A stretch of 64,000 nucleotides of DNA from Minisyncoccota bacterium (GTDB taxonomy: Bacteria; Patescibacteriota; Minisyncoccia; Phycocordibacterales; SBAW01): contig DASZWN010000001.1 of NCBI GenBank assembly GCA_035546575.1, positions 119,254 through 183,253 on the forward strand, read 5' to 3'. Both the position numbers and the translations under genes were made by a program. Below, one piece after another: positions 8,889-59,205 of this stretch. Position 1 is the stretch's first letter. Each line of letters begins with the position of its first letter. The notes under the pieces were generated by a model. That model did not search any database, was not told the DNA's origin, and saw only the letters and a list, made by a program, of their open reading frames with translations.

Positions 8889-8890
8889 TT

Positions 8891-9220
8891 TTAAAGCGCA
8901 GAGGCTTTCTCGCGCCCTATCTGGGGCAGCAAGTGTAAGTGCGTATGTGGTACGTCTTTTCCGACTATGCCCACCTGTACGTATCCTATATTCGGCCTCT
9001 TTTTCATCTCGCGCGCTAGCTTTTTTGCGATGCGGAATACATGGTCCGACACTTCGTCTGACATTTCCTCAAACCATGTAGAGTGCTCTTTCGGTATAAG
9101 GAGCGTATGACCGGGCACTTTTGGGTTTTTGTCTATAAACGCCAGCACTTTATCATCCTCATATATCTTTTCTGCCGGAATCTGACCCGCAATTATTTTG
9201 CAAAAAATACAGTCATCCAT
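8891..9220 (-). CDS. HIT-family (histidine triad) nucleotide hydrolase
   Basis: C-x-F-C at the N-terminus and the HTHLHLLP histidine triad. Confidence 0.85.
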   Translation of the reverse strand: MDDCIFCKIIAGQIPAEKIYEDDKVLAFIDKNPKVPGHTLLIPKEHSTWFEEMSDEVSDHVFRIAKKLAREMKKRPNIGYVQVGIVGKDVPHTHLHLLPQIGREKASAL

Positions 9221-9243
9221 CCCTTTAGTATATACTTGCTTGG

Positions 9244-11344: not shown

Positions 11345-12676
11345 GTGAAATATTGGAGCATCTTTGGCCTCCTGGTGTTTGCATACGCGGCGCTTTTATT
11401 TGCTCGCGTTGTTTTTACGCTCAATGCCGAGGCTGCGGAGACTTTGCCTCTGTACGACGGACACACGGGTGCAGTGGTGGGGAGGGTAGTTAACGACCCT
11501 GACCGACGCGCTACTTCGCTCCATGTACATGTGAGGGTGGCGACAGTTGATGGCGAGCCCGCACGCGGTACGCTGCTTGCGCTTTTGCCGCCACAAGCAG
11601 AAGTTTCGTACGGCGACACCGTTGAGGTGTCGGGGACAATCAAAACACCAGAGCCGTTTGAGACCGACACGGGCCGCGAGTTTAACTACGCAGGCTATCT
11701 GCGCGTGCAAGGGGTCTCAATGATGATGCAAAAAGCTACGCTACAAAATGTAGAAGAGGGAGGACTATCTTTGCAAAAAACTCTTTTTAGCATCAAACAC
11801 ACGTTTGAACACTCGCTCGAGAAATTATTCCCCGAGCCGGACAACTCGCTGCTTGAGGGGATTCTGCTCGGCGAGCGCTCGGGGCTCCCGAAAGATGTAC
11901 AGAATGCGTTTATCGCATCGAGCTTGGTGCACGTGGTGGTGCTCTCCGGCTACAATATATCGATTGTTGCCAACGCGGTGCTCTACGCCACCTCGGGTTT
12001 GCCGCGCACATTCTCCTACGGCTTTGGCGGAATGCTCATGATCTTGTTTGCCATGATGACTGGTGCAGGTGCCACTACGGTGCGTGCATGCGCCATGGGA
12101 GTTATCTCTATTGTTGCGCAGTACATGCACCGGCCAACGGTCGCGATGCGCAGCCTTATCGCAGCGGCGGGTGCGATGATACTCTGGAACCCGCTTATTG
12201 TGCTCTACGACTCCTCTTTTATATTGAGTGTGCTCGCGACATTTGGACTCGTGACACTGTCACCGACGACCGAGCGGTGGGTAAGGTGGATCCCAGAGAA
12301 GTTTGGCCTACGGTCAATTGCCGCAGCAACAATCGCAGTGCAACTGTTTGTGCTGCCAGCACTTTTGTATTTTACCGGCGTACTTTCTGTTGTTGCACTG
12401 CCTGCAAATTTACTCGCGCTCCCTGTTGTGTCTTGGGCAATGTTGTTTGGTTTTATTGCGGGGCTTCTTGGATTTGTACATCCTGCACTCGCACTACCGT
12501 TCGCGATCCTCGGTGACGCGCTCCTTAGGTGGATGATGCTTGTAGCAAACACAGCAACCGCGTTCCCGTTCTCCTCGACAGTAGTGGCGGCTTTTCCTGC
12601 TTGGATACTTATAGCGATGTATATTCCGCTAACGACTATTGCCACTAAGATTTACCTTACACAAAGTAACTCATAA
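11345..12676 (+). CDS. comEC: ComEC/Rec2 DNA internalisation channel, N-terminal DUF4131-like plus competence domain only (no MBL domain)
   Basis: LLGERSGLPKDVQNAFIASSLVHVVVLSGYNISIV core and multiple TM segments. The protein ends before an MBL domain. Confidence 0.8.
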   Translation: MKYWSIFGLLVFAYAALLFARVVFTLNAEAAETLPLYDGHTGAVVGRVVNDPDRRATSLHVHVRVATVDGEPARGTLLALLPPQAEVSYGDTVEVSGTIKTPEPFETDTGREFNYAGYLRVQGVSMMMQKATLQNVEEGGLSLQKTLFSIKHTFEHSLEKLFPEPDNSLLEGILLGERSGLPKDVQNAFIASSLVHVVVLSGYNISIVANAVLYATSGLPRTFSYGFGGMLMILFAMMTGAGATTVRACAMGVISIVAQYMHRPTVAMRSLIAAAGAMILWNPLIVLYDSSFILSVLATFGLVTLSPTTERWVRWIPEKFGLRSIAAATIAVQLFVLPALLYFTGVLSVVALPANLLALPVVSWAMLFGFIAGLLGFVHPALALPFAILGDALLRWMMLVANTATAFPFSSTVVAAFPAWILIAMYIPLTTIATKIYLTQSNS

Positions 12677-12739
12677 AAAAGTCCTTAGCCCCATTTCGCT
12701 TCGCGAAACGGCACGCCCCCACCTAGACTTTTTTCTGAG

Positions 12740-13333
12740 CTACTTTGTCACGGCTTCAAACCGCTTCTCGATAACAGACCAATTAAGATTTTTGAAAAAC
12801 GCGTCTATATATTTGCCGCGGCCGGTGGCACCTTGGTCAAGTATGTATGCGTGCTCCCACACGTCGATGGCAAGCATAATAGGGAGCGTCACAAAGTGGC
12901 CCTGATGCTGCTCGCCCGAGAAGCCAGCAATAAATTGTTTTGTCTCAGGGTCCCAGTACAAAATCGCCCAACCCGGCCCGCGTGTTGACGCGATGCTCTT
13001 GAGATACGGCTCAATGTGCGCAGCCTTCATATAATCTTTTGTGAGCGCTGCCTCGAATGCACCGCCGCTTGTAATCGGCGTAGCGCCACCCTCGAGCTGC
13101 TCAAAGTAATACTCGTGCAAGCGCATACCGTCCCACTCAAACGCGCGGCGGCGGAATATCTCGGCGAGCGCGTGGGCGTTCTTCTCGGCCTCCTTGGCGT
13201 ACTCCGGCATCAAGGCCGACATCGCATTAAAGTTTTTTACATAGCCTGCATAGAGGGCGAGGTGCTGGTCTATAGATTCCTTAGAGATACCCTCTAGAGC
13301 GGGGATAGTAAACTGTTTTTCTTGGTATTGCAT
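12740..13333 (-). CDS. sodA: Fe/Mn superoxide dismutase
   Basis: DVWEHAYILD metal-binding motif and N-terminal FTIPALEG. The ORF-track GTG start at 13366 is also possible. Confidence 0.85.
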   Translation of the reverse strand: MQYQEKQFTIPALEGISKESIDQHLALYAGYVKNFNAMSALMPEYAKEAEKNAHALAEIFRRRAFEWDGMRLHEYYFEQLEGGATPITSGGAFEAALTKDYMKAAHIEPYLKSIASTRGPGWAILYWDPETKQFIAGFSGEQHQGHFVTLPIMLAIDVWEHAYILDQGATGRGKYIDAFFKNLNWSVIEKRFEAVTK

Positions 13334-13471
13334 GTGTTCAGTAAAACATCTTAATTCTAAAGACACCCTAAAGATATCCCCATAAGGGTTGCAAAAAGTA
13401 CTATTTGTGGCATAGTTCTGTGTAGTTAGTCCTTAGCCGCAATCTGCGGCGTTTCAAAACGGGGGAACCCA

Positions 13472-13780
13472 ATGAAATATGTTTTAGGTGTTGCTTTGGT
13501 CGGGATAGCGGCGGGAGCGTGTTTCGCACTCGCTAATCCCAGCCCAATCGATACGCTGTTCACAAAAGCGGGAATGATGATCCTGCCCCACAAAGGGCAA
13601 GACCGCATTTTTCCGGCCGGCAAGGGTTTTGGCACGGTAGTGGTGCCAGATCCTGAGAACCGTATCACCAGGGTCAGCAAGCCAATTACGGTCGAGATGG
13701 AGCCGAGCGCAGCCGATCTGGCAGCGTACGACTACATGCTCGCCATCGGCCTGGCCGACACTGGCAAGCCCGACCACTAA
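13472..13780 (+). CDS. Hypothetical secreted protein
   Basis: SD GGGGGA. Signal-peptide-like N-terminus (VALVGIAAGACFALA). Intrinsic terminator downstream at 13800-13836. Confidence 0.5.
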   Translation: MKYVLGVALVGIAAGACFALANPSPIDTLFTKAGMMILPHKGQDRIFPAGKGFGTVVVPDPENRITRVSKPITVEMEPSAADLAAYDYMLAIGLADTGKPDH

Positions 13781-15722: not shown

Positions 15723-18700
15723 TTGATGTCTCACGAATTCCTGCCGAGGATTTCTTTCAACAGACTTACACTACTAGCTAAGCTCACCGGAGGTGTTGCG
15801 GCGCTGGTTATGTTTGCCGTTGTCTTTAGCGGACGCATACCGATTAGCGGAGGGCTTGGAGCGGCGACCGCTACGTTCGCCGACGGCTCTGTGCTTACTC
15901 TCACTGCGGCAGACTCCTCTGTTACATCGGGGAATTCGACTAAACTTTCTTGGAACGCAAATTTACTCCCATCCTGTTTCGGCAGCGATACGACCGGTTG
16001 CGGCAAAGCAAATGCATCTATTGCAAGCATACTTCCGGTACAAGTATTTACTATTGGAACAGACCCCACACCGTATCTTTTGGCGCAGAACGGGATATAT
16101 AAATGGATCACGTCCGGCCCCACCGGAGCGCCATGCTTTGGCAAGGATACCTCAAGCTCGTGCGGAACAGTATTCCAATCAATTCCTCCATTAACCAATG
16201 GCCAGCAGGGAATAATGGCATTTACAGCGAGCAACGGCACTACCTACCTTGCGACGGTGGAAGTATATGCTTCTCCTCGCCTCTACAAATGGCTTCCGAC
16301 GCAAAATAGCGGAAACGGATGCTTCGGCAATGGCACTACCTGCATGAGTTCTGCGGCCGCATCCATGTTTCAGAATAACTTTCCTACAGGACCGTATTCT
16401 GAAGGAGGATTTGATTGGGAATATGCATATATAGGAGGCAATGACTACGTAATGCTCACGGTAGGAAATGCGGTGTATGTATACAAATGGATAGCAGGTA
16501 CCAAGAACTGCTTCGGAGACGGAACAAACTGCGCGACACCGGCAGTCCAATTCCAAACTATTGCGCCGCCATCTCCTCAAAGTTTCTACATGAGAGCTTT
16601 CTCTATAGGAACTGGTGCGTATCTTATTGTCGCCGACAGTACTACCTCTACCGGAGGGAACTCCGTCGTCTACCGGTGGAACCCGACCGCCAACAGTAGC
16701 AAGGGCTGCTTCGGGAGTACCTCGAGTTCCAATTGTGGTACGGCCTTCCAAAGCGGATTGTCCCGCGGGGCGTCTGCCTCGACAGCGGTGTCGGTGACCA
16801 CGCTTGGAAGCGATCAAAATCCTTACCTATTTCTCGCCCCTGGCGTAGGAGGTGTAGGAGGTTCTGATAATGCGGGGCTCATATATAAATGGAATCCCTC
16901 TGGTAATAGTAGTAATGGCTGTTTCGGTACTGGCTCGGGAACTGCCTGCGGTACAAGCAGCGGTAATTTCTTCCAGAAACTGCCTCTAGCTAACTGGCAA
17001 ATGACGGCAACTACCACACCAATCGGCACATTTTTGGTAACTATGGTTAACAGCTATGACGCAACTCCGGGGAACGTATATAAGTGGAACCCGACCGGCA
17101 ATGGCGGCTTAGGTTGTTTCGGTAATGGAACTGCTTGCGAATCCGCAACGACCAAAACCAATGTATGGCAGACGCCGTTTGATTATATAGCTGCGCCAAC
17201 TACCTACGCCCTCCTTTCGGGGAATACTTATATCGTTACGCCGTATTCCGCAACTCAAGGCGGCACGTACGGAGCGGGCATCTTTAAACCTCGATATCCG
17301 ACCTGTTCGGTAACATGGAGTAATGCAGGAGGTTCAGGGACGATTGGATCTGGAGTCGTCGGTGTAAACGTAGATACCCCGCCTATAACCCAAAACACCA
17401 CCTACACGCTCAACTGTGTTGGCGTGGGCAGCGTACAAGTTCAGGTAACTATCGCGGCAGCTGCGGTTACTCCTATTGTCTCTGTCTCCACGATTGCATC
17501 TCCCGCAACCGAGTCCGGCACACCGGGAACATTGCGCATCACTCGGGCTGCCGGTACCACCGCATCCAAAACAGTATTTTTAGATTCTGCCTCTGGTTGG
17601 ACACAACGACCGTCAGCCGGCAACCGTAGCTGGTCGAGCATCACCTCTTCTTCCGACGGCACCAAGCTTGCGGCGGTGGTAGGGCTCGATTCAGCCGGCT
17701 ACATCTATACCTCGACCGACTCCGGCGCTACGTGGACGGAGCGTACCGGCGCGGGAAGTCATAAGTGGGGAAGCATCGCATCGTCCGCCGACGGCACTAA
17801 GCTCGTGGCGGTAGTAGGTGGACCGGGAGAAGGACAATCTGAATTAGGCTACATCTATACCTCGACCGACTCCGGCGCCACGTGGACCCAGCGCACTGGC
17901 TCCGGCAGCCGCGATTGGATCTCCGTTACCTCTTCTAGCAATGGAACTAAGCTTGCGGCTGCAGTATTCGGCGGCTACATCTATACCTCGACCGATTCCG
18001 GCGCTACGTGGACGCAACGTGCAAGCAGCCGTCTGTGGAGTTCAATCACTTCCTCTGCCGACGATGGCACCAAGCTCGCCGCAGCGGTACAAAGCGGCTA
18101 CATCTATACCTCGACCGATTCCGGCGCTACGTGGACGGAGCGCACGACTGCAGGCAATCGTTATTGGAATTCCATCACCTCTTCTTCCGACGGCACCAAG
18201 CTTGCGGCGGGAGTGTACCCTCAAAGCCCAGACGAATCCATCTACCGCTCTTCGGATAGCGGTGCCACCTGGGCTCCTGATCCTAGCGTCGGTTCGCATG
18301 ATTGGCAGTCAGTCACCTCCTCTTCCGACGGTACTAAACTTGCTGCAGTTACTGAATCAGATACGGAAGGAGGCGGTTATTCTTACACAGGTAGTTTTCC
18401 TGTGAATCAGTGGACGGTACCTTCCGATTGGAACAGCAGTAATAATAAAATTGAGGTTATTGGTGGCGGAGGAGGCGCTGCTTCGACTGGCGGTGGCGGT
18501 GCAGGAGGCGGATACTCAAAATCATTAAATGTCTCTCTTACACCCGGCGCCTCTCTTGCTTATAGCGTTGGTTCGGGCGGTGCGGGAGGAGGTCCAGGGG
18601 GCACTTACCCATCCTGTGTCCTCGGTGCAGTCGGGGGCAATACATACATATGTAATTCGACCGGCAGTTGCACTTCCTTGTCGGATAGCGGAGTTTTGGT

Positions 18701-19997
18701 AGGTGCCCAAGGCGGCGGCGGCGGATCGTTCGGTGCCCCGAGCACTAACGCTGTAGGCGGCGATGCGGCTAATGGGAAGGGCAATTCCAGCAAATATTCG
18801 GGAGGGAACGGCGGATACGGATATGGAGGGACTTCGGGCGGCGGTGGCGGCGCTGCCGGTCCTGCCGGTAAAGGGGGCGCAGGCGGTCCTGCTTTTGGAG
18901 GGACTGCAGTATCAGGTGCTGGCGGTGGTGGCAATGGCGGCGGCACAGACGGTACAAAGGGCGCGGGAGTAACTACCGGCGGGGCGGGTGGAAATAATGC
19001 GAATGGTACCGGCGGAGGGACAGCGGGCAATCCCGGTAATCCTGGTTCCAGCGGCGGCGGAGGCGGTGGTGCCGGAGGAGGAAACAGTAATCCCAATGTT
19101 GCCGGCGGAGCAGGAGGCGGAGGGATTGAATGGGATTCTTCTCACGGTTCGGGCGGCGGCGGCGGCGCTGGCGCACGGAAGAATAGCTCTATGTCCAATG
19201 GAGGAAACGGCGGACTGTATGGCGGCGGCGGCGGTGCCGGAGGAGCGGATGCCGGCACCGGTGCCTGCGGCACAGGCGGCAATGGAGCTCCAGGCATTAT
19301 CGTCATTACCTATACGCCTGCCGGCGGCACGCTTGATACCTCTGCAGCTCTTCCTGTTACGTTTTCGCTCGCGACGGGTGGTAATAACGCGATTCGCAAC
19401 AGCGACTACACGCTGTCGGGCGCAAGTATTGCAAATCCTTCCGGAAATACACTCACTATTCCGGCAGGACAAGCGTCTGTCGACGTGACAATAACTCCCG
19501 TCCAGGATCTTCTTTATGAAGGCAATGAGCCGGTCACTATGACTATCCAACCGCCTGGCGACTCCAGCTATACCGTCGGTTCTCCGAACAGCGATACTGT
19601 CACCATCGTGGATCAGCAGGGTCCGACATCGTTACCAAATTCTTCAGGAGGGCTCACCTCATGTGTAGGCGTCGCAAGCGCGTCATGCAATCTCGGAGTT
19701 ACGCCGCAGCGTGTCCGCAGCGGAAGCTCCGTAACGGTTACGTGGTACGTGTCTGGTCTCATTACCGGAGCCAACGGGAACGGAAGCGACTCGTGCGTTA
19801 TTACTAAAACTCCTGATGACTCAGTCTTTCCTCAGAGTTGGAATCAATCCGGCAGTACCTGGATAAACGGCGGGGGTGTTTCGTCAGTCATCACTCAAAA
19901 CAGCGTATTCACGCTTACCTGTACCGCCCCTGACGGGATTACTAAAACCAGCACTTCGCAGTTGATCAGCATCATACCGGTTTTCCAAGAGATATAA
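15723..19997 (+). CDS. Giant secreted/surface protein, 1424 aa. Order: seven Cys-containing YKW-P..GCFG..C..FQ repeats, six BNR/Asp-box repeats (TDSGATWT), a Gly-rich TWTVP...VIGGGGG module, a Calx-beta-like domain, then the shared C-terminal domain ending IPVFQEI
   Basis: Signal anchor. Repeats visible in the translation: SxDxGxTW six times, consistent with a beta-propeller. Gly-rich region of about 300 aa. C-terminal ~90 aa homologous to the C-terminus of 6819..7808. Confidence 0.8.
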   Translation: MMSHEFLPRISFNRLTLLAKLTGGVAALVMFAVVFSGRIPISGGLGAATATFADGSVLTLTAADSSVTSGNSTKLSWNANLLPSCFGSDTTGCGKANASIASILPVQVFTIGTDPTPYLLAQNGIYKWITSGPTGAPCFGKDTSSSCGTVFQSIPPLTNGQQGIMAFTASNGTTYLATVEVYASPRLYKWLPTQNSGNGCFGNGTTCMSSAAASMFQNNFPTGPYSEGGFDWEYAYIGGNDYVMLTVGNAVYVYKWIAGTKNCFGDGTNCATPAVQFQTIAPPSPQSFYMRAFSIGTGAYLIVADSTTSTGGNSVVYRWNPTANSSKGCFGSTSSSNCGTAFQSGLSRGASASTAVSVTTLGSDQNPYLFLAPGVGGVGGSDNAGLIYKWNPSGNSSNGCFGTGSGTACGTSSGNFFQKLPLANWQMTATTTPIGTFLVTMVNSYDATPGNVYKWNPTGNGGLGCFGNGTACESATTKTNVWQTPFDYIAAPTTYALLSGNTYIVTPYSATQGGTYGAGIFKPRYPTCSVTWSNAGGSGTIGSGVVGVNVDTPPITQNTTYTLNCVGVGSVQVQVTIAAAAVTPIVSVSTIASPATESGTPGTLRITRAAGTTASKTVFLDSASGWTQRPSAGNRSWSSITSSSDGTKLAAVVGLDSAGYIYTSTDSGATWTERTGAGSHKWGSIASSADGTKLVAVVGGPGEGQSELGYIYTSTDSGATWTQRTGSGSRDWISVTSSSNGTKLAAAVFGGYIYTSTDSGATWTQRASSRLWSSITSSADDGTKLAAAVQSGYIYTSTDSGATWTERTTAGNRYWNSITSSSDGTKLAAGVYPQSPDESIYRSSDSGATWAPDPSVGSHDWQSVTSSSDGTKLAAVTESDTEGGGYSYTGSFPVNQWTVPSDWNSSNNKIEVIGGGGGAASTGGGGAGGGYSKSLNVSLTPGASLAYSVGSGGAGGGPGGTYPSCVLGAVGGNTYICNSTGSCTSLSDSGVLVGAQGGGGGSFGAPSTNAVGGDAANGKGNSSKYSGGNGGYGYGGTSGGGGGAAGPAGKGGAGGPAFGGTAVSGAGGGGNGGGTDGTKGAGVTTGGAGGNNANGTGGGTAGNPGNPGSSGGGGGGAGGGNSNPNVAGGAGGGGIEWDSSHGSGGGGGAGARKNSSMSNGGNGGLYGGGGGAGGADAGTGACGTGGNGAPGIIVITYTPAGGTLDTSAALPVTFSLATGGNNAIRNSDYTLSGASIANPSGNTLTIPAGQASVDVTITPVQDLLYEGNEPVTMTIQPPGDSSYTVGSPNSDTVTIVDQQGPTSLPNSSGGLTSCVGVASASCNLGVTPQRVRSGSSVTVTWYVSGLITGANGNGSDSCVITKTPDDSVFPQSWNQSGSTWINGGGVSSVITQNSVFTLTCTAPDGITKTSTSQLISIIPVFQEI

Positions 19998-22632: not shown

Positions 22633-23221
22633 GGATATTGAGAAAAGGGTTAAAACTCGAGCACGGCGGCAAAGAATACAGCATATCGTCCTTGGCTCTG
22701 TCTATGCGGCAACTGCTATTGGTATGGCAATGGTCGCACCAAACTCTGTGCAACTATTGCGGCATGTTCAAAAACATTTTGGCCCAAAAGAAAAACTCGG
22801 CCGGCGTATATCTCAAGCTATTACACGCCTACATAGCAAAGGCCTTGTTGTCCGTGTAAAAACTGAAAAAGGTTTCTCGCTCAAACTTACAGAGAAGGGG
22901 AATCGGCTCGCGGAGTCACTGGAGGCAAGAGAGTCTACTCATGCACATACGCCAAAGCGGTGGGACGGAAAGTGGCGGATTGTGATATTTGATGTGTGGG
23001 AGCGCAGGCGGGGAGTGCGCGACCAGTTGCGCCATATGCTCCAAAAAGCAGGTTTCGTAAAAATCCAAAACAGTGTATGGGTGTACCCGTATGACTGCGA
23101 GGAATTGTTTACCTTTCTACGTATCGACCTACATCTGGGGAAGGGGATTCTCTACATCGTTGCAGAAGAAATCGAGCATGACGAAAAGTTGCGCCAGCAC
23201 TTTCACCTCCCACGTCCATAA
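22631..23221 (+). CDS. PaaX-family transcriptional regulator (wHTH plus PaaX_C-like WDGKW domain), short form
   Basis: PKRWDGKWRIVIFDVWERRRGVRDQL matches the PaaX WDGKW signature. The N-terminal region is wHTH-like. Confidence 0.65.
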   Translation: MDIEKRVKTRARRQRIQHIVLGSVYAATAIGMAMVAPNSVQLLRHVQKHFGPKEKLGRRISQAITRLHSKGLVVRVKTEKGFSLKLTEKGNRLAESLEARESTHAHTPKRWDGKWRIVIFDVWERRRGVRDQLRHMLQKAGFVKIQNSVWVYPYDCEELFTFLRIDLHLGKGILYIVAEEIEHDEKLRQHFHLPRP

Positions 23222-23225
23222 GCCT

Positions 23226-23265
23226 CTGTTCCTTAAATCTAGCGACCGCGTATAATAAGGAACAT
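23226..23265 (+). repeat. 40-bp direct repeat copy 2 (downstream of the paaX-like gene, upstream of 23354)
   Basis: Matches 22593-22632. Confidence 0.75.
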
Positions 23266-23353
23266 AGAGAATAAGATTGTACTAGGAACTGACCTGTGCA
23301 CAGCAGCAAAAGCCAACACAGCCTTCGCCCGCCTTGCATGATAAAATAGAATC

Positions 23354-23656
23354 GTGAAAAAGTGGCTATATATCGGTGGTGTTCTCGCCGTTGTTGAGTA
23401 TTTTTTGTGGATTTTCTATGTTTGTGCTTCAGACACAAGTGGCGGATGCGGTGTCGGGTTATTAATTATCCACCCATGGCTTGGTCTTGCTTATATAATC
23501 CAAATTCCCGTTGATGGATCAATTGGCTATATATTAGAGCCTTATTTTTCAGATATTCTTTTCGTAGCTATTCAATTTATAGTAGGAATGTTTTTTGGAT
23601 GGTTAGCATACCGAATATTTAATTGGTTCAAGAAGTTACCGCCCAGCAGTTTCTAG
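23354..23656 (+). CDS. Hypothetical small membrane protein (AT-rich gene)
   Basis: Three predicted TM helices. Lower GC than the flanking genes. Confidence 0.45.
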   Translation: MKKWLYIGGVLAVVEYFLWIFYVCASDTSGGCGVGLLIIHPWLGLAYIIQIPVDGSIGYILEPYFSDILFVAIQFIVGMFFGWLAYRIFNWFKKLPPSSF

Positions 23657-23717
23657 AAGGTTGCATTTTTGCGGTTTTTTAGTATCTTAGTGGTAACGCC
23701 TTTGGCGATTTTTATTT

Positions 23718-50837: not shown

Positions 50838-51095
50838 TTAGTTTCTCCGCCGCAGCACTTTCTCGAAGTCGGAGGAAAAACTGACCACCATTTCACCTCG
50901 GCTAGAGGTAAGGTTGATGGTGCGGCTTTCCCCGGCTGGGGACTCAAGGATCACCTCCAGAGTATGCAGCTCCGCCGGAATATCCGGCGAGGCGTATTCT
51001 TCTGCGGCCTTTTTGAGGCCCTCCGGCGAGTTATCGAACTTCTGGTCCGGATGCGGCAGCACCCGGTACGCTCTAACAGAGTATCTGCGTGCCAT
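50838..51095 (-). CDS. Hypothetical protein, 85 aa
   Basis: SD AGGAG before the ATG. Confidence 0.45.
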   Translation of the reverse strand: MARRYSVRAYRVLPHPDQKFDNSPEGLKKAAEEYASPDIPAELHTLEVILESPAGESRTINLTSSRGEMVVSFSSDFEKVLRRRN

Positions 51096-51165
51096 CTAGC
51101 GCTCCTGTAAAACAGGGGTGGGGTGCATCTATTTGCACCTTACCGTATATCCCTGGATTCCTCAA

Positions 51166-51552
51166 CTATCTCCCAACCCAACTGTTCTTAAAAAACCTTT
51201 GTCTCCACAGTTTTAAACAAAAACCAATAAGATTTCCTAAAATAGTCACACCAATAAATCCTAAATATATCTTTAGGCTAAGGTTATACAAAAGAAAGAA
51301 GCCCAGAAAAGCATATAGTGTAATAATAATATAGTCGGCTTTTTTCCCTAGGGCGCCAAAAATAACACTAACCCATAGAGCGTAAGAAAATACTAAGGCT
51401 AAAAAATCTGTAGCGAACCCCTGGAATGCCCCAAAAAAAGTGGAAGATTCACTATAACCAAGGTATTGAGTTACAAATGGAATAAAGCCATCTACTAGTA
51501 TAAATCCAATTACCAATACAAAAATTAACCAAAACATTCTCATGAGCACCAT
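51166..51552 (-). CDS. Hypothetical membrane protein (AT-rich gene)
   Basis: Four predicted TM helices. About 35% GC segment. Start trimmed to the internal ATG to avoid overlap with the upstream gene. Confidence 0.45.
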   Translation of the reverse strand: MVLMRMFWLIFVLVIGFILVDGFIPFVTQYLGYSESSTFFGAFQGFATDFLALVFSYALWVSVIFGALGKKADYIIITLYAFLGFFLLYNLSLKIYLGFIGVTILGNLIGFCLKLWRQRFFKNSWVGR

Positions 51553-51560
51553 TTTAGTAA

Positions 51561-53807
51561 TTACTGCGTCTGATGATCTCTGAACCATGTTGTGTATTTG
51601 TGTATTAAGTCTACACCATCTTTCATATTACCCTTGTCCTTTGCCAACAGATCCATGTCAGCTAAAGTCAACTTAATAGCTGCGGTCGTTATAGTAAGAA
51701 GTAATGCGTTTGCCTTAGTGCGTTTCGCAGGGATAACCTTCTCGATAGTTTCTTTAGTCTTAAGGAGCTCCTTTAATGCTTTGCAGTCAAAGACTAAATT
51801 GTCAGCAACAGCTTTTTTACCAATCCACTTGTTTTTGTAAGCCAGAGTCATGTCCGTAACACAAGTGTCTGGAGTGAGTGTGGTTAGTGGAGGCGGCGGG
51901 GAAGCGTCGGCAGTAATTGTAACCGCTGTGGTCGTAGAGGATAAGTAAAGCGAATTGTTTATTACTTGGTTGAGGGTAGTGGTGCCGCTCACGTAAGCCT
52001 CGTTTGTGGTTGTGCTCTGTATATAGCTTGTAGCGATGGTGTAAGTGCCATTGCCAGTACCCTTGGTTTGCACTTTATATGTGCCAGGCAAGGGGTCAAA
52101 AATAATTGCGTACTCATGTTCGGCATCCGGGCCTGAGTACAAAGCGTTAGGAATTTCGTTAACTACTGACCCGGTCGTAATATCTTTACCTATATGCGCG
52201 CCATTAGGAGCAGTAATCTCCATATTGATAGGAGAGAAAAGAAGAAAGAATAATATTGTATGATTTTCGGCAAAACTACCTATGGTTTGCATCAAATCCT
52301 TAAATTCCGAAGGCGTTGGTGATAGTTTATTTATCAAAACAGAGTAATCAGCATCTTTAAGAGGTACGAACACATTTCCCACGATTATCTGTGGATCCTT
52401 GTTATTTAATTGTCTAAATATATAAGCTGCACTTGTAGAAGCTACTTCTGTATGGTTCACCCCGTGAAACTCCTTATCAGCCGCACCAACAAGATTTTCT
52501 ATACTTACTCTTGGAACCGTCACGTCTCCTGTGTCAAAATAAGTCGCCGTAATTTCTCCATCTTGCCACTTTGGCAACACCGTGGAAGGTTTGGTAATAA
52601 AAAAACTGATGGTATTGCTAAGATCTGTATCAGCCAGAATAGTGTCAGTCCGTGCCGCCTTTGTAATCTTTGCGAAGTTAGACGCAATATTCTCTAGAAA
52701 TATATTTTTAGGTGGAGTGATGGTGTTGAAGTCGGAATCAAACAAATAATCATACGTAGGCAAAAGTTGTTGTATCGAAAGAACAGGCTTGTTTCTTAGG
52801 TAACTAAATGTATCGTTATAACCTGCTTGCTTTGCTTCTTTAGTAAAAACTCTTTCCAGCAGCATGTTTTGGAGTTTTGAGAAAATATCGTTTGAATCAG
52901 GGTCAATCTGACCACCTTCCCACATCTTATAAGCTTTAGGGGAACCTGATAGGGGGGTTGCGAGGAAGAAGACCTGGTCGACATCGTTTTTGTACCCAGG
53001 GCTCTCGATGTATTGGGCCGCAACCAGTCCTCCCATCGAGTGTCCTATCAAGTTTACATGGCTACAGTTGCAGATAGTTTTTATATCCTGGATCTTTTTT
53101 GCCAACACCGATGCGGTAACTTCGTTCGGCTCCTCCCAATCGTAGGGGAATTTAAAAAGAGTTTTACCGTCTACATAGCCGTTGGCTAGGAAAGTGTCGA
53201 CCAAGTTGTCGTAAATATGAGTAATTGGATCGAGTACCCACTCGCCGTTCTTTTGCCATGATCCGAGGATCCCAGGAATGATCACCACCGGCTCATACTC
53301 GCTCGCGGGTACGCCGCCCCACTTCCACTGTATGATCGCGTAGTTATTGCTTGGCAGTAGCGTGCCGGTAGTCGAGCCTGTTTTAAATGCGGCATCAAAC
53401 CTAGCAGCTTCGGTGCTTGAGCTGTATCCGTATACTACGGAAAAATAATTCTGATCCTGCGCTGGGCTGCCAAAGTTATTGGTATCTTCCTGTACAAGGG
53501 TAGGAGAGTCGCCCTGTATTTTATCACCAGCCACAAATATCGAGTTGCCAGGTACTCCTTTGTAGGTGGCGATCGTTTTGGTGCCGGGGATCTTCGAGGG
53601 AATGCTATACACGCACGGCCCCCCATTTTGAGCTACATAATGCTTTCCTGACTCAAAAGAAAATTTGTATGGACTACAGGAGAAGCTGAATGGTTGGGCT
53701 CCATATACAGGATCAAAGGAGAGGTTGGTAGTGTTGGCAAGGGCTACCGATGTTCCCAGAGATAGGAATATGCCTGCAACCAGAGAGATAATGCCAACTA
53801 CACGCAT
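51561..53807 (-). CDS. Secreted alpha/beta-hydrolase (lipase/esterase-like, GHSMGG nucleophile elbow) with C-terminal beta-rich domains
   Basis: Signal peptide. GxSxG motif as GHSMGG. The N-terminal ~430 aa are paralogous to 53985..57239. The 3' half is markedly AT-rich. Confidence 0.8.
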   Translation of the reverse strand: MRVVGIISLVAGIFLSLGTSVALANTTNLSFDPVYGAQPFSFSCSPYKFSFESGKHYVAQNGGPCVYSIPSKIPGTKTIATYKGVPGNSIFVAGDKIQGDSPTLVQEDTNNFGSPAQDQNYFSVVYGYSSSTEAARFDAAFKTGSTTGTLLPSNNYAIIQWKWGGVPASEYEPVVIIPGILGSWQKNGEWVLDPITHIYDNLVDTFLANGYVDGKTLFKFPYDWEEPNEVTASVLAKKIQDIKTICNCSHVNLIGHSMGGLVAAQYIESPGYKNDVDQVFFLATPLSGSPKAYKMWEGGQIDPDSNDIFSKLQNMLLERVFTKEAKQAGYNDTFSYLRNKPVLSIQQLLPTYDYLFDSDFNTITPPKNIFLENIASNFAKITKAARTDTILADTDLSNTISFFITKPSTVLPKWQDGEITATYFDTGDVTVPRVSIENLVGAADKEFHGVNHTEVASTSAAYIFRQLNNKDPQIIVGNVFVPLKDADYSVLINKLSPTPSEFKDLMQTIGSFAENHTILFFLLFSPINMEITAPNGAHIGKDITTGSVVNEIPNALYSGPDAEHEYAIIFDPLPGTYKVQTKGTGNGTYTIATSYIQSTTTNEAYVSGTTTLNQVINNSLYLSSTTTAVTITADASPPPPLTTLTPDTCVTDMTLAYKNKWIGKKAVADNLVFDCKALKELLKTKETIEKVIPAKRTKANALLLTITTAAIKLTLADMDLLAKDKGNMKDGVDLIHKYTTWFRDHQTQ

Positions 53808-53876
53808 GGCGGCACATTACACGTCTGCACGGCCCAATGCAACTACACTGGCTTTATCAAAGCCGGATTGACCTTA

Positions 53877-53902
53877 TTCGCACATTCGCGCGAATGTACG
53901 AA
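53877..53902. promoter_or_regulatory. 26-bp near-perfect palindrome (16-bp perfect core acattcgcgcgaatgt) about 70 bp upstream of lipase gene 51561..53807
   Basis: ttcgCacattcgcgcgaatgtAcgaa; operator-like. Confidence 0.4.
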
Positions 53903-53926
53903 TATCTGAGGAGGTGGAGGTAGATA

Positions 53927-53956
53927 TCTAAAAAGAGGCGTGGGAGCGCCTCTTTT
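53927..53956. terminator. Bidirectional terminator (aaaaagaggcg-tggga-gcgcctcttttta)
   Basis: 8-bp stem flanked by A-run and T-run, between the two lipase paralogues. Confidence 0.65.
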
Positions 53957-53984
53957 TATTTCTCTATGCTACTGCGGGTTAGAC

Positions 53985-56900
53985 TTACAAACCTGCAGGG
54001 ACGGGAATTGTGCTGTTGCCGCTCGGGAGCGTGAAGGTCATCGTTGGCGAGCCCGAGATGTTTATCGTGTCGGCTACGACTGCAAAGAAGTTCGAAGGGG
54101 TGTTCTTGGCACTGCCTGCGACATTGAGCTGCTGGCGAGGGAGGTAGACTACGCCGTCGAGCGTCAGAGTACCCGATCCTGCGAGCGTGGTTGCCGCAAG
54201 CGGCGTGCCGTTTGTATTTGAAGGATCAAGGAAGATAGCAAAACCTGCCATCGTGCCCGAGGTTGGCGCCGAGATGTCGAGCTTGCCGGAGCCGGCCAGA
54301 GTGAGGCCCGCACCGCTGCCTGTCATAAAGAACGAGACGCCGTCGCCCGTGACCGACGCACTACCCGCGATGCTCAAGTCGCCGCCCTTAAGGATATAGA
54401 TGCCCGGGTTAAGCGTGAGTTTTGCCGAGCCGTCTACCGTGATGCCGCCGCAGTATACGCCGGGGCTGATTGTTGCTTTGTTATTTTGTGCCAGCGTGTA
54501 GTTGGTCTGCGTGCATGCGCCGACTGCTGGTTTTGCGTGGCTGGCAAACGGATCGGCGATGGCGGTGCACGAAACCGCGTTAGGCGAGATTGACGCGCTT
54601 CCGGATTTAGAAACCGTGCCGACGATGCAGTTCTTAGTCGAAGTAATCTTGGTGCTGCCGCTAATGTTGACTGCGCCGCTTGAGTTTGAGTTTACCTGCA
54701 CGCCGCAGTTGGTGCCCTTGATCTGCGTGCTGCCCGCAAGCGTAATCGCGCCCGCACCGCTTGTCTTGAGTGCTACTGCACATGCGCCTGTGCCGGTTGA
54801 AACTTGCGGCGCGCTTATCTTGAACGAGCTCGTCGCATAGCCAGTGTTGCCTGCAGCGTCGGTCGCAGAGATCACGAACGTGCTGGTACCTACCGGTGCA
54901 GACGAGAATGGCAGGGCTTGTGCTGGGTTTACTGAGGCGCCATTAAACTTGTACGTCTTGGTAGGTATAGCCGATCCCTCCGGGTCGGTGATCGTGAAGG
55001 CGGGCACGACGGAATCGGTCGTGAGATACGAACCGTTGTTTTGCGGCGCGGTTATGGTTATCACCGGAGCACCTGTGTCTGCCGGCGGAGGCGCTACAAC
55101 AACCGAGAACGATGACGTTGCGTAGCCAGTGTTGGTAAACACATCGGTTGCAGACACAACTAGTGTTGATGTGCCGAGCGGGAGATTTGCGAAGTTGATC
55201 GGCTGCGCTGGGTTGATCAGTACACCGTTAAGACGATAGGTGCTTGTTGCGATAGGGGAGTTTTCCGGATCGGTAAATGTTGCAGACACCGAGGTTGTCG
55301 CGTTGTTGAAGTATGCGTGGTTTTGCTGTGGGCTGTTGATAACGACTGCAGGCGGATTGATGTCGAGCGACTCGATAGTGATTGAGTCTGATGTGGTTGC
55401 AAGCGTGAACTGGAGACCTATGAGTTGACCGGGTGTTGTTTGGGTCGGGGCAGTACTTGTTGCAACAACGCCCTGGCCGCAGACATCGGATGCGTTAACG
55501 CTAAAGTTGCCGGTACCGGAGCCCTGCGTGCGGATCTGGTAGATGCCGTTGATCGGGTTTACGACAATACCGTACTCAGGAGCTGCAGCAAAACCGGAAT
55601 AGATAGAGTTGCCGATCTCGTGGAAGGTGCCGCTACCGCCCAGGTCCTTGCCAAGGCGATTGCCGTTAGGGTCCGTAATCTGCATGTCGGCCGGCGAAGT
55701 GGTGGTGAGGAAGAGCACGCAACTCACCGGATATGAGGTTGTTACGGTCGGAAGCGGCGCTTTGCTGTTGAGGAGCGTAAAGACATAGCTCTGCGATGCG
55801 GTAGGGAGTGCGCGGTGCGCCACGGGGAACTCATGGTCGGGTTGGACATAATTCTCGATACTTGCACGTGGCACCATGCCGTCGCCTGTATCGGTAAAGG
55901 TGTTGGTTGGCTGACCCTCGGGCCACAGCGGCGGCTGCGAGGACGGCGCTACGGTATAAAGCGTAGTTGTCTGCCCCGTGTTGTCATCTGCAAGGATCGT
56001 GTTTACGCGCACGCGGTTAAACACATTGAGCCCGTAGTTCGAGATCAAGTTCTCGATAAAGGTGTTGCGCGGGTAACCGGTTGGGTACGTGTAGGTGTTA
56101 AAGTCGTTGTCAAAGAGATAATCATAGGTCGGGAGCATTTCTTGGAACGAGAGCACCGGCTTGTTATGAATATAGTCGAACACACTCAGGAATCCGAGCT
56201 CTTTTGCTGATGCGCCCAGGAATACCTGCGCAAGGCCGTCTGAAAGCGGACTGCCAAAAGAGATCTGGCCGCCCTCCCATGCGAGGTACGCCGCCGGCAC
56301 GCCGCCGAGTGGTGTTGCCATCAGCACAAGCTGGTCGACGTCGTTTTGGTAGTCGGTTCCGCCGATGTACTGCTCGGCAATGAGGCCGCCGGTGCCGTGC
56401 GCGACAACATCAACATGCGAGCAGCCGCAGGCAGCTTTTACGTCCTGGATTTTATTCTTGAGTGCCTGCGCCGTCAGGATATTTGAATCCTGCCAGTTGT
56501 ACGGCATCGGAAAGAATGTCTGGTTGAGCACGTAGCCGTTTGCCAAGAATGTGTCAGTAAGGTTTTGGTAGATATGGAATATCGGGTCGATTACGAGCCC
56601 CGTGTCGGTCTGCCATGAGTTAAGAATGTCGGGTACCAATAGCACAGGCTCGTACTCGCTTGCGGGCTTGCCGCCCCATTTCCACTGAATGAGCGCGTAA
56701 TTATTGCCGGGAGGGAGCACGTTGGTCGAGGAGCCGTTTTTAAATGATGCGTCGTAGAGCGCAGCATCGGCCGGAGTTGTGTAGCCGTATACAACCGAGA
56801 AATAGTTCTGATCCTGGAGCGGCGAGCCAAAGTTGTTGGTGTCCTCCTGCACCAAAGTAGGAGAGCCCTGTATCTGGTCGCCAGCTACGAAGGTCGAGTT

Positions 56901-57239
56901 GCCAGGTACTCCTTTATAGGTAGCGATAGTCTTGGTACCAAGGACTGTCGAAGGGATAGTGTACACGCACGGACCGCCGTTTTGCGCGACGTAATGGTTA
57001 CCGGCCTGGAAGCCGATTTTGTACGGACTGCAGTAAAAGGTGAGCGGCTGTGAGCCGTAGCTCGGATCAGATGAGAGATTAGTAGTGTTTGCAAAAACGG
57101 GTGTAATAAATAAAAAGAATCCTGCCAGCACCCCAACCGCGCCCGTGATAAGTCGTGTATGCATATGCCTATACGATACTATATATAGGAGCTGCGTATA
57201 AGAAGCCTTCAGGATACCTGTGTAAAAGCTCCTAGACAC
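53985..57239 (-). CDS. Large secreted lipase-like paralogue, 1084 aa. The nucleophile Ser is replaced (AHGTGG), so it is probably non-catalytic. Ig-like and beta-helix-like C-terminal region
   Basis: N-terminal 430 aa align with 51561..53807, but GHSMGG becomes AHGTGG. Long Thr/Ser/Gly-rich C-terminus with repeated ..SGSG..LTLAGS.. segments. Confidence 0.8.
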   Translation of the reverse strand: MSRSFYTGILKASYTQLLYIVSYRHMHTRLITGAVGVLAGFFLFITPVFANTTNLSSDPSYGSQPLTFYCSPYKIGFQAGNHYVAQNGGPCVYTIPSTVLGTKTIATYKGVPGNSTFVAGDQIQGSPTLVQEDTNNFGSPLQDQNYFSVVYGYTTPADAALYDASFKNGSSTNVLPPGNNYALIQWKWGGKPASEYEPVLLVPDILNSWQTDTGLVIDPIFHIYQNLTDTFLANGYVLNQTFFPMPYNWQDSNILTAQALKNKIQDVKAACGCSHVDVVAHGTGGLIAEQYIGGTDYQNDVDQLVLMATPLGGVPAAYLAWEGGQISFGSPLSDGLAQVFLGASAKELGFLSVFDYIHNKPVLSFQEMLPTYDYLFDNDFNTYTYPTGYPRNTFIENLISNYGLNVFNRVRVNTILADDNTGQTTTLYTVAPSSQPPLWPEGQPTNTFTDTGDGMVPRASIENYVQPDHEFPVAHRALPTASQSYVFTLLNSKAPLPTVTTSYPVSCVLFLTTTSPADMQITDPNGNRLGKDLGGSGTFHEIGNSIYSGFAAAPEYGIVVNPINGIYQIRTQGSGTGNFSVNASDVCGQGVVATSTAPTQTTPGQLIGLQFTLATTSDSITIESLDINPPAVVINSPQQNHAYFNNATTSVSATFTDPENSPIATSTYRLNGVLINPAQPINFANLPLGTSTLVVSATDVFTNTGYATSSFSVVVAPPPADTGAPVITITAPQNNGSYLTTDSVVPAFTITDPEGSAIPTKTYKFNGASVNPAQALPFSSAPVGTSTFVISATDAAGNTGYATSSFKISAPQVSTGTGACAVALKTSGAGAITLAGSTQIKGTNCGVQVNSNSSGAVNISGSTKITSTKNCIVGTVSKSGSASISPNAVSCTAIADPFASHAKPAVGACTQTNYTLAQNNKATISPGVYCGGITVDGSAKLTLNPGIYILKGGDLSIAGSASVTGDGVSFFMTGSGAGLTLAGSGKLDISAPTSGTMAGFAIFLDPSNTNGTPLAATTLAGSGTLTLDGVVYLPRQQLNVAGSAKNTPSNFFAVVADTINISGSPTMTFTLPSGNSTIPVPAGL

Positions 57240-57262: not shown

Positions 57263-57721
57263 GTGCATATAAGTAATGGTGCGTATTTGATGTTCTTTAT
57301 GAAAAATAGCTCTTTACACGAGATAGCAAAGTTTGCTGCGGGGCTTGTGGCGGCGGATTTTCTCTGGTTGCTCTGGTTCTCCCAGCAGCACCTGAGGTCA
57401 ATAAGCTTCTTCGGAATGAACGTAACGTCCGAAATGCTCCTGCCAAACCTTATTTTTGACCTCGCACTCTTTATTGTGCTTGTCCACTACGCATGGCATG
57501 TGGGCAAGATCCCGGCTATGCGCGAGCGCTCGTATGTATTTATCGCAGGAATTATCTTTGCCTTTGTGGCGGTGCTCCATATCTGGCGCATCTTCACCGG
57601 CGCGGACCTGCAGCTGGGCGACTGGGACGCTCCGGTCTGGCTCTCGTGGTTTGGCGTCGCAGTGACGACCTATCTCGCCTACATGAGCTTCCACCTCGCG
57701 GCTCGCATCAAGGGTAAATAA
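57263..57721 (+). CDS. Hypothetical membrane protein
   Basis: Four TM helices. The start could instead be the internal ATG at 57290. Confidence 0.5.
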   Translation: MHISNGAYLMFFMKNSSLHEIAKFAAGLVAADFLWLLWFSQQHLRSISFFGMNVTSEMLLPNLIFDLALFIVLVHYAWHVGKIPAMRERSYVFIAGIIFAFVAVLHIWRIFTGADLQLGDWDAPVWLSWFGVAVTTYLAYMSFHLAARIKGK

Positions 57722-58269: not shown

Positions 58270-58308
58270 AGAAAGAAAACGCCCGAAAGGGCGTTTTCTT
58301 TATATCTG

Positions 58309-58678
58309 TGGAAGTGGAGAGATTTGAACTCTCGTGCAATATAAGATAGAACGCAGGTCTACAAGAGATAGACTATCTTATTTTCTTAGACTCAGTTGTA
58401 AGAGATAGACAGAATAAAACTGAGCTGCAGATCCTTTTTCTTGATTAGCAGCGAATCACTTTGCCAACCACAGCCCGATATATAACACCCTATCTCCCTA
58501 CTCAGACACTCGGGAGGGGATGGACCTTAGGCTCGCGCAGTGGCGAGAGAAAGATCATTCACCGAGAAATACGGTGAGCTAACTGATTTTGCAGTTATGG
58601 TTTGGAGCTTTTAAAGCAGATCTCCACTGCTCCCTTGCGTGTGAACTATTGATTACATTGTCTAAGCCTGTCACTCCC
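58309..58678 (-). ncRNA. ssrA: tmRNA (SsrA), about 370 nt, encoded without a CCA end
   Basis: Minus-strand RNA begins GGGAGUGACAGGCUUAGACAAUG... (compare the GGNUUCGACA consensus). It ends ...GAGAGUUCAAAUCUCUC-CACUUCC-A, with a T-arm and a 7-bp acceptor stem containing the G3-U70 wobble typical of Ala identity. Resume codon GCA near nt 87. Adjacent to smpB. Confidence 0.7.
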
Positions 58679-58722: not shown

Positions 58723-59205
58723 TTATTGATTTTTCAACGTTCTGCGAATATCTCGCTCGGTATCGCGCTCTTTTAAGACGGCGCGCTTGTCGTACTTCTT
58801 ACGGCCTCGCGCTAGAGCGATACGGAGCTTGAGATTCTTACCCTTATTATACACCGAAATAGGTACGATTGTCAACCCCTTCTGTCCCTCAAACCCGGCA
58901 AGCGCCGCAAGTTCTTTTTTAGTGAGCAGGAGCCGGCGGCTGCGCTCAGGGTCGTACTCTTTTGGAGTGTTAGCCGGTTGGTAGGGGGGGATACTCATGC
59001 CCACTACCCACGCTTCGCCACCGCGCACTAGTATATGTGCGCCCTCGAGCTTGCCGTGGCGAGCGCGCAAAGATTTAACCTCATGGCCAAGCAATTCCAA
59101 GCCGGCCTCGTATTCCTCGAGGATTTCGTACTCAAGCCGGGCCTTTTTGTGCTCGATCAAGTTCATACGGGTGAATATAGCATGCGATATGCTACTATGG
59201 GTCAA
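58723..59205 (-). CDS. smpB: SsrA-binding protein SmpB
   Basis: SmpB family sequence (..GHEVKSLR..G..L.GA...). Confidence 0.9.
   Translation of the reverse strand: MTHSSISHAIFTRMNLIEHKKARLEYEILEEYEAGLELLGHEVKSLRARHGKLEGAHILVRGGEAWVVGMSIPPYQPANTPKEYDPERSRRLLLTKKELAALAGFEGQKGLTIVPISVYNKGKNLKLRIALARGRKKYDKRAVLKERDTERDIRRTLKNQ

Follow-up and report, generated by a model that had tools for sequence, protein, structure and literature searches.

The stretch of DNA analysed here, 64 kb long and called the window throughout, comes from an ultra-small bacterium of the Paceibacterota, within the Candidate Phyla Radiation (CPR, or Patescibacteria). It contains two adjacent minus-strand genes for predicted secreted proteins of the family of LCAT and lysosomal phospholipase A2 (LPLA2). 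The smaller gene, at 51561-53807, encodes a 748-aa putative lipase with an intact nucleophile elbow, hereafter the live copy. The larger, at 53985-57164, carries glycine in place of the nucleophile serine and is hereafter the dead copy.

Results

Translation of the open reading frames (ORFs) recovered two long minus-strand frames, at 51561-53807 and 53985-57239, as the initial annotation had described. The larger frame of 1084 aa does exist, but its GTG start at 57239 probably lies 75 nt too far upstream. The deposited protein (P0036, 1059 aa) and its orthologues begin at the ATG at 57164 ('MHTRLITG...'), and the true gene is therefore 53985-57164 (-), with 1059 aa plus stop. P0036 is recorded as a 'hypothetical protein' from the same Candidatus Paceibacterota metagenome-assembled genome (MAG) as P0001, labelled 'alpha/beta hydrolase', to which the small protein is identical.

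The two genes are tandem lipase-like paralogues, as first proposed: BLASTP aligns their products at 49% identity over 643 aa (E = 0), and the common motifs quoted for them are found in both. Paralogy had been assigned to the N-terminal ~430 residues, an extent that proved too short. Because the alignment spans 643 residues, reaching about residue 640, the paralogous part comprises the N-terminal domain, the hydrolase core and the beta-sandwich that follows it. On direct reading of the sequences, both N-termini, MRVVGIISLVAGIFLSLGTSVALA/NTT in one and MHTRLITGAVGVLAGFFLFITPVFA/NTT in the other, look like the Sec-type signal peptides that had been predicted, with leaders ending in ALA/NTT and VFA/NTT. 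Both proteins score above the gathering cutoff of 21 bits for Pfam LCAT (PF02450), the small one with 58.5 bits and the large one with 32.7 bits, and the core fold is nearest to that of a solved LCAT/LPLA2 family member.

The dead gene encodes, in order along the minus strand, a Sec-type signal peptide (MHTRLITGAVGVLAGFFLFITPVFA; 57090-57164, read by eye from the translation and corresponding to a modelled N-terminal helix at residues 2-18), an N-terminal beta-sandwich (aa 26-165; 56670-57089) that has evolved in concert with its counterpart in the small protein, and the alpha/beta-hydrolase core (55755-56669), delimited by translation, model and clade-specific substitutions. There follow a beta-sandwich common to both paralogues (aa ~480-600; 55365-55727), all-beta in the model with a predicted local distance difference test score (pLDDT) >90 and covered by the BLASTP alignment; two Ig-like repeats present in the large protein only (aa ~605-790; 54795-55352), recognised from domain matches and beta-strand repeats in the model; and a C-terminal TadG-type (DUF7305) beta-helix-like domain (53988-54785). 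The live gene, on the same strand, has a signal peptide (53736-53807), an N-terminal domain (53313-53735), the core (52398-53312), a beta-sandwich (~51888-52310) and a helical tail (51564-51887).

We next considered the catalytic residues. The nucleophile elbow had been reported as whole only in the 748-aa copy, and an alignment of 120 homologues agrees: IGHSMGG of the small protein and VAHGTGG of the large one fall in the same column. Searches of PDB sequences with each protein singly (phmmer) gave no match, and the family profile alone reached B. subtilis LipA, LPLA2 and LCAT, with which the AHSMGG-type elbow aligns. An alignment to characterised alpha/beta hydrolases had been suggested as a check. 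The small protein has a complete triad, Ser257-Asp428-His452 (53037-53039, 52524-52526 and 52452-52454, all on the minus strand), with Gly179 at 53271-53273. The large protein has Gly257 (56394-56396), together with Asp179 (56628-56630), Asp428 (55881-55883) and His450 (55815-55817), likewise on the minus strand. In an AlphaFold2 model of the large protein (mean pLDDT 86; >90 over most of residues 30-690), residue 257 sits between strand 251-256 and helix 258-268, the position of the nucleophile elbow, while Asp428 comes after strand 418-425 and His450 opens helix 450-466, the canonical alpha/beta-hydrolase layout.

Glycine occupies the elbow in 9 of the 120 homologues from the first round. 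When 1.84 billion representative proteins were then searched exhaustively with a profile, the survey grew to 240 sequences. Of these, 214 show the pattern G179-S257-D428-H452 and about 20 have Gly257; wherever a Gly-bearing sequence extends over the Asp and His positions, both residues are retained. Position 179, which follows strand beta3 at the oxyanion-hole loop, changes as well. In one comparison set Gly257 occurs with Asp or Glu at 179 in 12 of 12 dead-clade sequences, as against Ser with Gly in 111 of 111 live ones; in the Gly257 group of the full survey, most members have Asp or Glu at position 179, three have Thr and one has Gly. Eighteen of the Gly257 sequences were complete enough for placement in a neighbour-joining tree based on the core, where they group in a single clade that no Ser-bearing sequence enters.

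Loci of relatives (L001 onwards) were found by looking up dead-clade proteins and by scanning GTDB species genomes. The Ser-to-Gly change is seen in the independent assemblies L001-L008. The ratio of nonsynonymous to synonymous substitution (dN/dS, Nei-Gojobori) is 0.09-0.12 for three pairs of dead-copy orthologues, values that are approximate owing to the high dS of 0.8-2.5. Between the window and L004 the dead copies are 79% identical and the live copies 59%. The serine loss is thus old and has been kept across the whole clade under strong purifying selection, and the dead copy reads as a functional protein rather than a relic, one that evolves more slowly than its live paralogue. By descent and fold the large protein is a member of the LCAT/LPLA2 family, though predicted to be non-catalytic. 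Two substitutes for the lost serine were examined. A shifted Ser or Thr nucleophile within AHGTGG was rejected, since the residue after Gly varies across the clade (T/M/S/A/L/E/Q), and the case for Asp179 as a replacement nucleophile is weakened by the Thr or Gly found at this position in some clade members.

The long C-terminal extension of the large protein had been described as Ig-like and beta-helix-like. Domain searches bear this out, with weak Big_7, Big_3_3 and OmpL47-type matches in addition to DUF7305; the OmpL47-type match has an E value of 6.5e-8 and 32.9 bits, under the curated cutoff of 40. The number of Ig-like repeats differs among dead-copy orthologues. The last 266 aa match DUF7305 (PF23981) with 28.1 bits against a cutoff of 27, and are 44% identical (E 1e-69) to residues 143-410 of P0245, which make up its entire globular C-terminal domain. 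Homologues of this segment bear a PF13400 pilin-like N-terminus and are named 'Flp pilus assembly protein TadG' in their sources, which, where named, are mostly Acidobacteria and Proteobacteria. According to published work (PMC12075869), TadG forms the backbone of the complex at the tip of Tad pili, where it is proposed to expose a modular C-terminal domain. Neither PF13400 nor PF07811 matches the large protein, whereas P0245, P0254 and P0285 have the pilin-like N-terminus. Among the neighbours in the syntenic loci L001-L003 we found no Tad or type IV pilus families; these neighbours are FtsH, SmpB, IF3, L35, L20 and other housekeeping genes. The large protein is thus, to judge from its domains, no TadG itself, and appears to carry TadG's exposed domain.

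This domain belongs to one sub-branch of the dead clade. The dead-clade proteins P0041, P0058 and P0059 are without it and end in C..D...A(Y/F)..K.I..K.....L..DC..L, a motif that resembles the helical tail of the live copies. Because these other members of the clade keep a live-like tail motif, the TadG-type domain has displaced the ancestral tail in one sub-branch (P0036, P0039, P0054 and P0071). In the window the domain (53988-54785, -), 40-44% identical to TadG-type proteins and confined to that one dead sub-branch, also has the highest GC of its gene (0.58-0.60). If any part of the locus is foreign, it would be this 3'-terminal domain of the large gene.

Domain-wise identity matrices give different histories for different parts of the two proteins. 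The core and the C-terminal sandwich group by orthologue type: the dead copies of the window and L004 are 77% identical in the core and 81% in the C-terminal sandwich, compared with 50% and 34% between dead and live copies within the window. The duplication is therefore older than these species. In contrast, the N-terminal domain (aa 25-165) groups by genome and not by orthologue. Its two copies within a genome are 76% identical in the window, 74% in L002, 75% in L004, 62% in L005 and 61% in L008. In the window, L002, L004 and L008, no compared copy is closer than the one in the paralogue; in L005, several orthologues are equally close. In codon alignments, L002 and L004 contain tracts of 85-95% nucleotide identity with matching third positions, and the window a weaker tract of 79% at codons 63-103. 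These patterns indicate that the N-terminal beta-sandwich domains have been homogenised within each genome through gene conversion. Two contigs of one MAG, L007 (3-2417) and L009 (3-1721), start at about residue 150 of the dead and the live gene, respectively. An assembly break at this point would be expected if the N-terminal domain copies in that genome were near-identical DNA repeats.

The tandem itself is conserved. A dead copy followed by a live copy on the same strand is found in L001, L002, L004, L005 and L008. The order in L002, FtsH-SmpB-...-dead-live-...-IF3-L35-L20, matches that of the window, and in L001 the pair is followed by IF3-L35-L20. The called dead gene of L001 (6292-9135, P0058) begins at about residue 150 and has a separate 145-aa gene directly upstream, which could be a split N-terminal domain or reflect a frameshift. 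L003 has a dead copy (8001-10508, with GHGMGG at the elbow) and neither a live copy nor the small membrane-protein gene at the syntenic site.

That membrane-protein gene (51166-51588, -) encodes 140 aa with about four transmembrane segments (4-TM) and has the lowest GC at third codon positions (GC3) in the window; its 5' end overlaps the final 28 nt of the live gene. In L001, L004, L005, L008 and L009 the live copy is immediately followed or overlapped by a homologue, and the start MVQ(K/R)(S/T) is conserved in these five loci; in L021 a partial match (aa 45-140) lies ~100 nt downstream of the live copy. Identity of the 4-TM protein is 32-42% across all six loci. This arrangement suggests that translation of the live gene and the 4-TM gene may be coupled. 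Taken together, the locus reads as an old, vertically co-inherited module of a Paceibacterota bacterium.

A second small membrane protein, of 152 aa and also with about four transmembrane segments, is encoded divergently at 57263-57721 (+). It is a conserved neighbour whose membership in the system is uncertain. Its identity is 82-90% in L001, L003, L004, L005 and L006 and 62% in L021, and it always adjoins an LCAT-like gene; it is far more conserved than the adjoining lipase-like genes and always divergent from them. Neither the 140-aa nor the 152-aa protein has a Pfam or NCBIfam match. About 1 kb from the lipase locus, a tmRNA gene (58306-58678, -; Rfam 81.4 bits; ARAGORN tag peptide AKSVSSPYFSVNDLSLATARA) adjoins the SmpB gene (58723-59205, -).

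The 3' half of the small gene and the adjacent membrane-protein gene had been singled out as AT-rich and attributed to recent recombination with foreign DNA. The dip itself is real. Taken over 500 nt, the GC of the window has a mean of 0.530 and a standard deviation (sd) of 0.043, and its minima lie at 51001-51600 (0.35-0.41) and 52001-52700 (0.38-0.41). The trough in the small gene covers codons ~300-525, however, and not the whole half. GC3 is 0.449 in the small gene and 0.293 in the membrane-protein gene against a mean of 0.595 (sd 0.080) over 65 ORFs, that is 1.8 and 3.8 sd below the gene mean and the lowest or near-lowest of the set.

An origin in lower-GC foreign DNA, brought in recently, is what these extremes would suggest at first sight, and the comparison with relatives makes it very improbable. 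In L001, L004, L005 and L008 both the live and the 4-TM gene occur, side by side and alike in composition; L002 also has the live gene, and L021 has it with the partial 4-TM match. At least five relatives carry the AT-rich material at the corresponding syntenic position, with the same low GC and intragenic profile. In all six genomes the live copy is 6-13 GC points under the dead copy and also lower than the average of its locus. Five of the six have a live copy whose first quarter exceeds the remainder in GC, and in four that quarter also has the peak GC3; GC3 is at its lowest in the third quarter in five genomes, L002 being nearly flat. The 4-TM gene has a GC3 of 0.27-0.42 in the six other loci examined and, like the live copy, is poorer in GC than the dead copy and the surrounding locus in each of them. 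Distances among live-copy orthologues parallel those among dead copies, and the best non-self match of the small protein among 5.8 billion proteins is only 56-58% identical. Neither mobility genes nor direct repeats were seen at the borders of the AT-rich stretch.

Composition instead follows conservation. Inside the small gene, GC3 tracks the conservation of orthologues (Spearman 0.86, p 7e-5, in 50-codon windows), and across 13 neighbouring genes it tracks identity to relatives (rho 0.67, p 0.012). The 152-aa protein combines 87% identity with a GC3 of 0.69, the dead copy 60% with 0.65, the live copy 51% with 0.45 and the 4-TM protein 37% with 0.29. We infer that the AT-rich stretch is not recent foreign DNA and that it marks the fastest-evolving genes and segments under AT-biased mutation. 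Gene conversion from the GC-rich dead copy may in addition lift GC at the 5' end of the live gene. Hydrophobic residues were rejected as the cause of the low GC of the 4-TM gene, since two other small membrane-protein genes nearby have a GC3 of 0.62-0.67.

Elsewhere in the window, only 23101-23700 also falls below a GC of 0.42; it holds a 100-codon ORF (23354-23653) with a GC of 0.38, a GC3 of 0.34 and no Pfam match. A 1424-aa ORF at 15723-19994 (+), with a small EPTP match and a sub-threshold BNR match, has a higher GC at second codon positions (GC2, 0.63) than at third positions (GC3, 0.51), and two neighbouring ORFs, at 6819-7805 (+) and 7827-8885 (+), have a GC2 of 0.59-0.69 and no Pfam match. 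The odd codon-position composition of these three could mean either low-complexity surface proteins or ORFs called in the wrong frame.

Two elements lie between the dead and live genes, in a spacer of 177 nt that compares with 4-66 nt in most related loci and ~2.5 kb in L008. The first is a hairpin resembling an intrinsic terminator (53929-53958, -), directly 3' of the large gene, with A-run and T-run flanks that make it readable on both strands. Comparable T-run hairpins separate the two genes in L001 and L004, and L005 has a GC-rich hairpin there. The second is a palindrome that had been given as 26 bp, near-perfect, at 53877-53902; it is genuine, but extends over 30 nt at 53875-53904 (no strand assigned), as two arms of 15 nt with no spacer and one mismatch (TATTCGCACATTCGC and GCGAATGTACGAATA on the plus strand). 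It lies between the terminator-like hairpin and the ATG of the small gene, 68-97 nt upstream of the latter.

No equal palindrome arose in 100 shuffles. We found no second copy in the window at up to 3 mismatches and none in any of 69 related loci, and a scan with the sigma-70 consensus returned no promoter-like site near it. The palindrome may be a lineage-specific operator. In L016, an unrelated MAG, four copies of a perfect 32-36-nt palindrome, ACATTCTCACATTCT(TG/CA)AGAATGTGAGAATGT, occur within 1.5 kb (12082-13594), ~2 kb downstream of a distant LCAT-family gene. In the palindromes of both the window and L016, each arm consists of two direct repeats of an (AC)ATTC(G/T) unit, and this common arm design may reflect related operator designs.

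Discussion

We consider it probable that the locus encodes a catalytic phospholipase and a partner without catalytic activity that serves in binding or adhesion; the two may together obtain lipids from a host. The live copy would act outside the cell as a phospholipase A or an acyltransferase, freeing lysolipids or fatty acids from the membrane of a neighbour or host. Its gene is probably co-translated with that of the 4-TM protein, for which anchoring, immunity or import are conceivable functions. The dead copy would be unable to form an acyl-enzyme and may bind lipid or a cell surface, thereby targeting or positioning the system, and the matching N-terminal domains could dock both proteins on one partner or on each other. 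A non-catalytic, adhesin-type role for the larger copy, which the initial annotation had proposed, remains its best interpretation: the Ser-to-Gly change is the hallmark of a conserved clade that is under purifying selection, and the protein carries Ig-like and TadG-type domains.

Several observations weigh against this interpretation. The substrate of the live copy, whether it hydrolyses or transacylates, and the membrane on which it would act are predictions. That Asp428 and His450 persist in all dead-clade members with coverage of these positions is more than a purely adhesive role would demand and could mean residual chemistry. Pairing is not obligatory: L003 carries a dead copy only, L018 and L021 a live copy only. 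The terminator-like hairpin parts the two genes here and in relatives, so that the two may be expressed independently. The concerted evolution seen in the N-terminal domains might be a neutral consequence of their tandem repetition, with no selection for a common partner involved, and the account of low GC in terms of evolutionary rate is a correlation only.

The kept dyad and the paired genes each suggest another function for the dead copy. The latter could regulate or chaperone the live lipase, as a co-activator, an inhibitor or decoy, or a helper in folding or secretion, acting through the matched N-terminal domains; the pair might even serve lipid remodelling of the cell's own envelope and not an attack on a host. 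There are precedents: the pseudo-lipase ABHD5/CGI-58 co-activates ATGL, and lipase-specific foldase genes adjoin the lipase genes of Pseudomonas and Burkholderia. The conserved tandem and the per-genome homogenisation of the N-terminal domains are what such a relationship might produce. We nevertheless think it unlikely, given the loci in which one copy stands without the other, the hairpin between the genes and the gain by the dead copy of surface-type modules (Ig-like and TadG-type) that a chaperone would not need; it also overlaps with the account we favour and is hard to separate from it in silico. If instead the large protein is still an enzyme, its His450-Asp428 dyad, perhaps with the acidic residue 179, might activate water or another nucleophile for general-base hydrolysis or a lyase- or transferase-type step in place of acyl-enzyme catalysis. 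Some alpha/beta-hydrolase-fold enzymes, for example cofactor-independent dioxygenases, rely mainly on a His-Asp dyad, and the invariance of Asp and His among the Gly-bearing members, the change of position 179 with the serine throughout the dead clade of the 12-versus-111 comparison and the strong purifying selection would all fit. An altered chemistry is improbable all the same, with position 179 not always acidic, an unconserved residue after Gly that leaves no substitute nucleophile at the elbow, and Ig-like repeats and a pilus-tip-type beta-helix that are typical of binding proteins. That the large gene is a decaying, functionless, pseudogene-like duplicate, as the lost serine alone might suggest, is hardly credible for an intact ORF of more than 1000 codons with a dN/dS of ~0.1, more conserved than its live paralogue, belonging to a clade of ~20 members among the 240 surveyed and having gained new domains.

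A more specific and more speculative form of the enzyme-and-partner account, which we hold to be doubtful, would join the dead copy, the live lipase and the 4-TM protein into a lipid-harvesting device of Patescibacteria. The pseudo-lipase would grip the host envelope by its pilus-tip-type beta-helix and hold phospholipid in its crippled site, the His-Asp pair having been kept for binding. The live enzyme, docked by its matching N-terminal domain, would cut or transfer an acyl chain to give lysolipids, which the membrane protein would then import; alternatively, that protein would shield the epibiont's own membrane. In a more radical variant, the Gly257/Asp179 clade would have acquired a novel chemistry that does without serine.

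The favoured pairing of an enzyme with a non-catalytic partner differs from the known systems closest to it. Identity to LPLA2 within PF02450 is only ~18%, and the bacterial proteins add N-terminal and C-terminal beta-sandwiches and further tails to the LCAT/LPLA2 core; the large one, in addition, is without the nucleophile. Bacterial secreted lipases of the AHSMGG type (B. subtilis LipA, B. licheniformis BlEst2, 6wpx, and the A. fulgidus lipase, 2zyr) are single enzymes with no dead paralogue and no N-terminal sandwich, and the match to them is limited to the core. Pseudoenzymes are a known kind within the alpha/beta-hydrolase fold; among them are the neuroligins and other cholinesterase-like adhesion molecules (Ser to Gly) and ABHD5/CGI-58, the co-activator of ATGL. 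Like these, the dead clade has lost its nucleophile while the fold stays under selection, and its role would have moved to binding, adhesion or partnering an active lipase. Neuroligins and ABHD5 are, however, eukaryotic and have no sequence relation to the dead clade, which is distinguished from them by tandem dead and live paralogues, gene-converted N-terminal domains and a genome-reduced bacterial setting. TadG-type minor pilins of Tad/Flp systems, which combine a PF13400 N-terminus with a DUF7305-type C-domain, share the latter with the large protein; unlike them, it lacks a pilin-type helix and instead joins the domain to a dead lipase that begins with a Sec signal peptide. Phospholipase effectors of the type VI secretion system (T6SS) come with immunity proteins (for example Tle4-Tli4, 4r1d), whereas here Sec signal peptides are found instead of T6SS signals, and the downstream 4-TM protein is unlike the families searched (Pfam and NCBIfam), so that an immunity role for it would be speculation.

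The proteins of this locus have been deposited and generically annotated. In the literature searched, we found no paper on this family under LCAT or lipase in CPR or Parcubacteria, and no published description of the dead clade, the conserved tandem, the domain-restricted gene conversion or the TadG-type fusion. The locus also carries a caution on method, in that a sharp GC trough need not equal foreign DNA and here appears to mark fast-evolving genes and segments. It puts the evolution of a bacterial pseudoenzyme on view: a single loss of the serine, a coupled second-site change, slower evolution than in the live paralogue, a tail replaced by a pilus-tip module, and gene conversion limited to a single shared domain.

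CPR bacteria are described as being without lipid synthesis (PMC7242380; PMC11665869), and no mechanism of lipid uptake, breakdown or acquisition has been identified in them (PMC11665869), while lysolipids are enriched in CPR cells (PMC7242380). The family to which both copies belong comprises 727 representative clusters at 50% identity (E <= 1e-30, in the library of 1.84 billion proteins), and nearly all of the close, full-length relatives that we fetched come from genomes labelled Patescibacteria. This secreted LCAT/LPLA2-type family is a concrete candidate for lipid acquisition in CPR bacteria, and an enzyme of this type would yield lysolipids; the conserved pairing of live and dead copies suggests that the enzyme works alongside a partner that has no catalysis of its own and serves in targeting.

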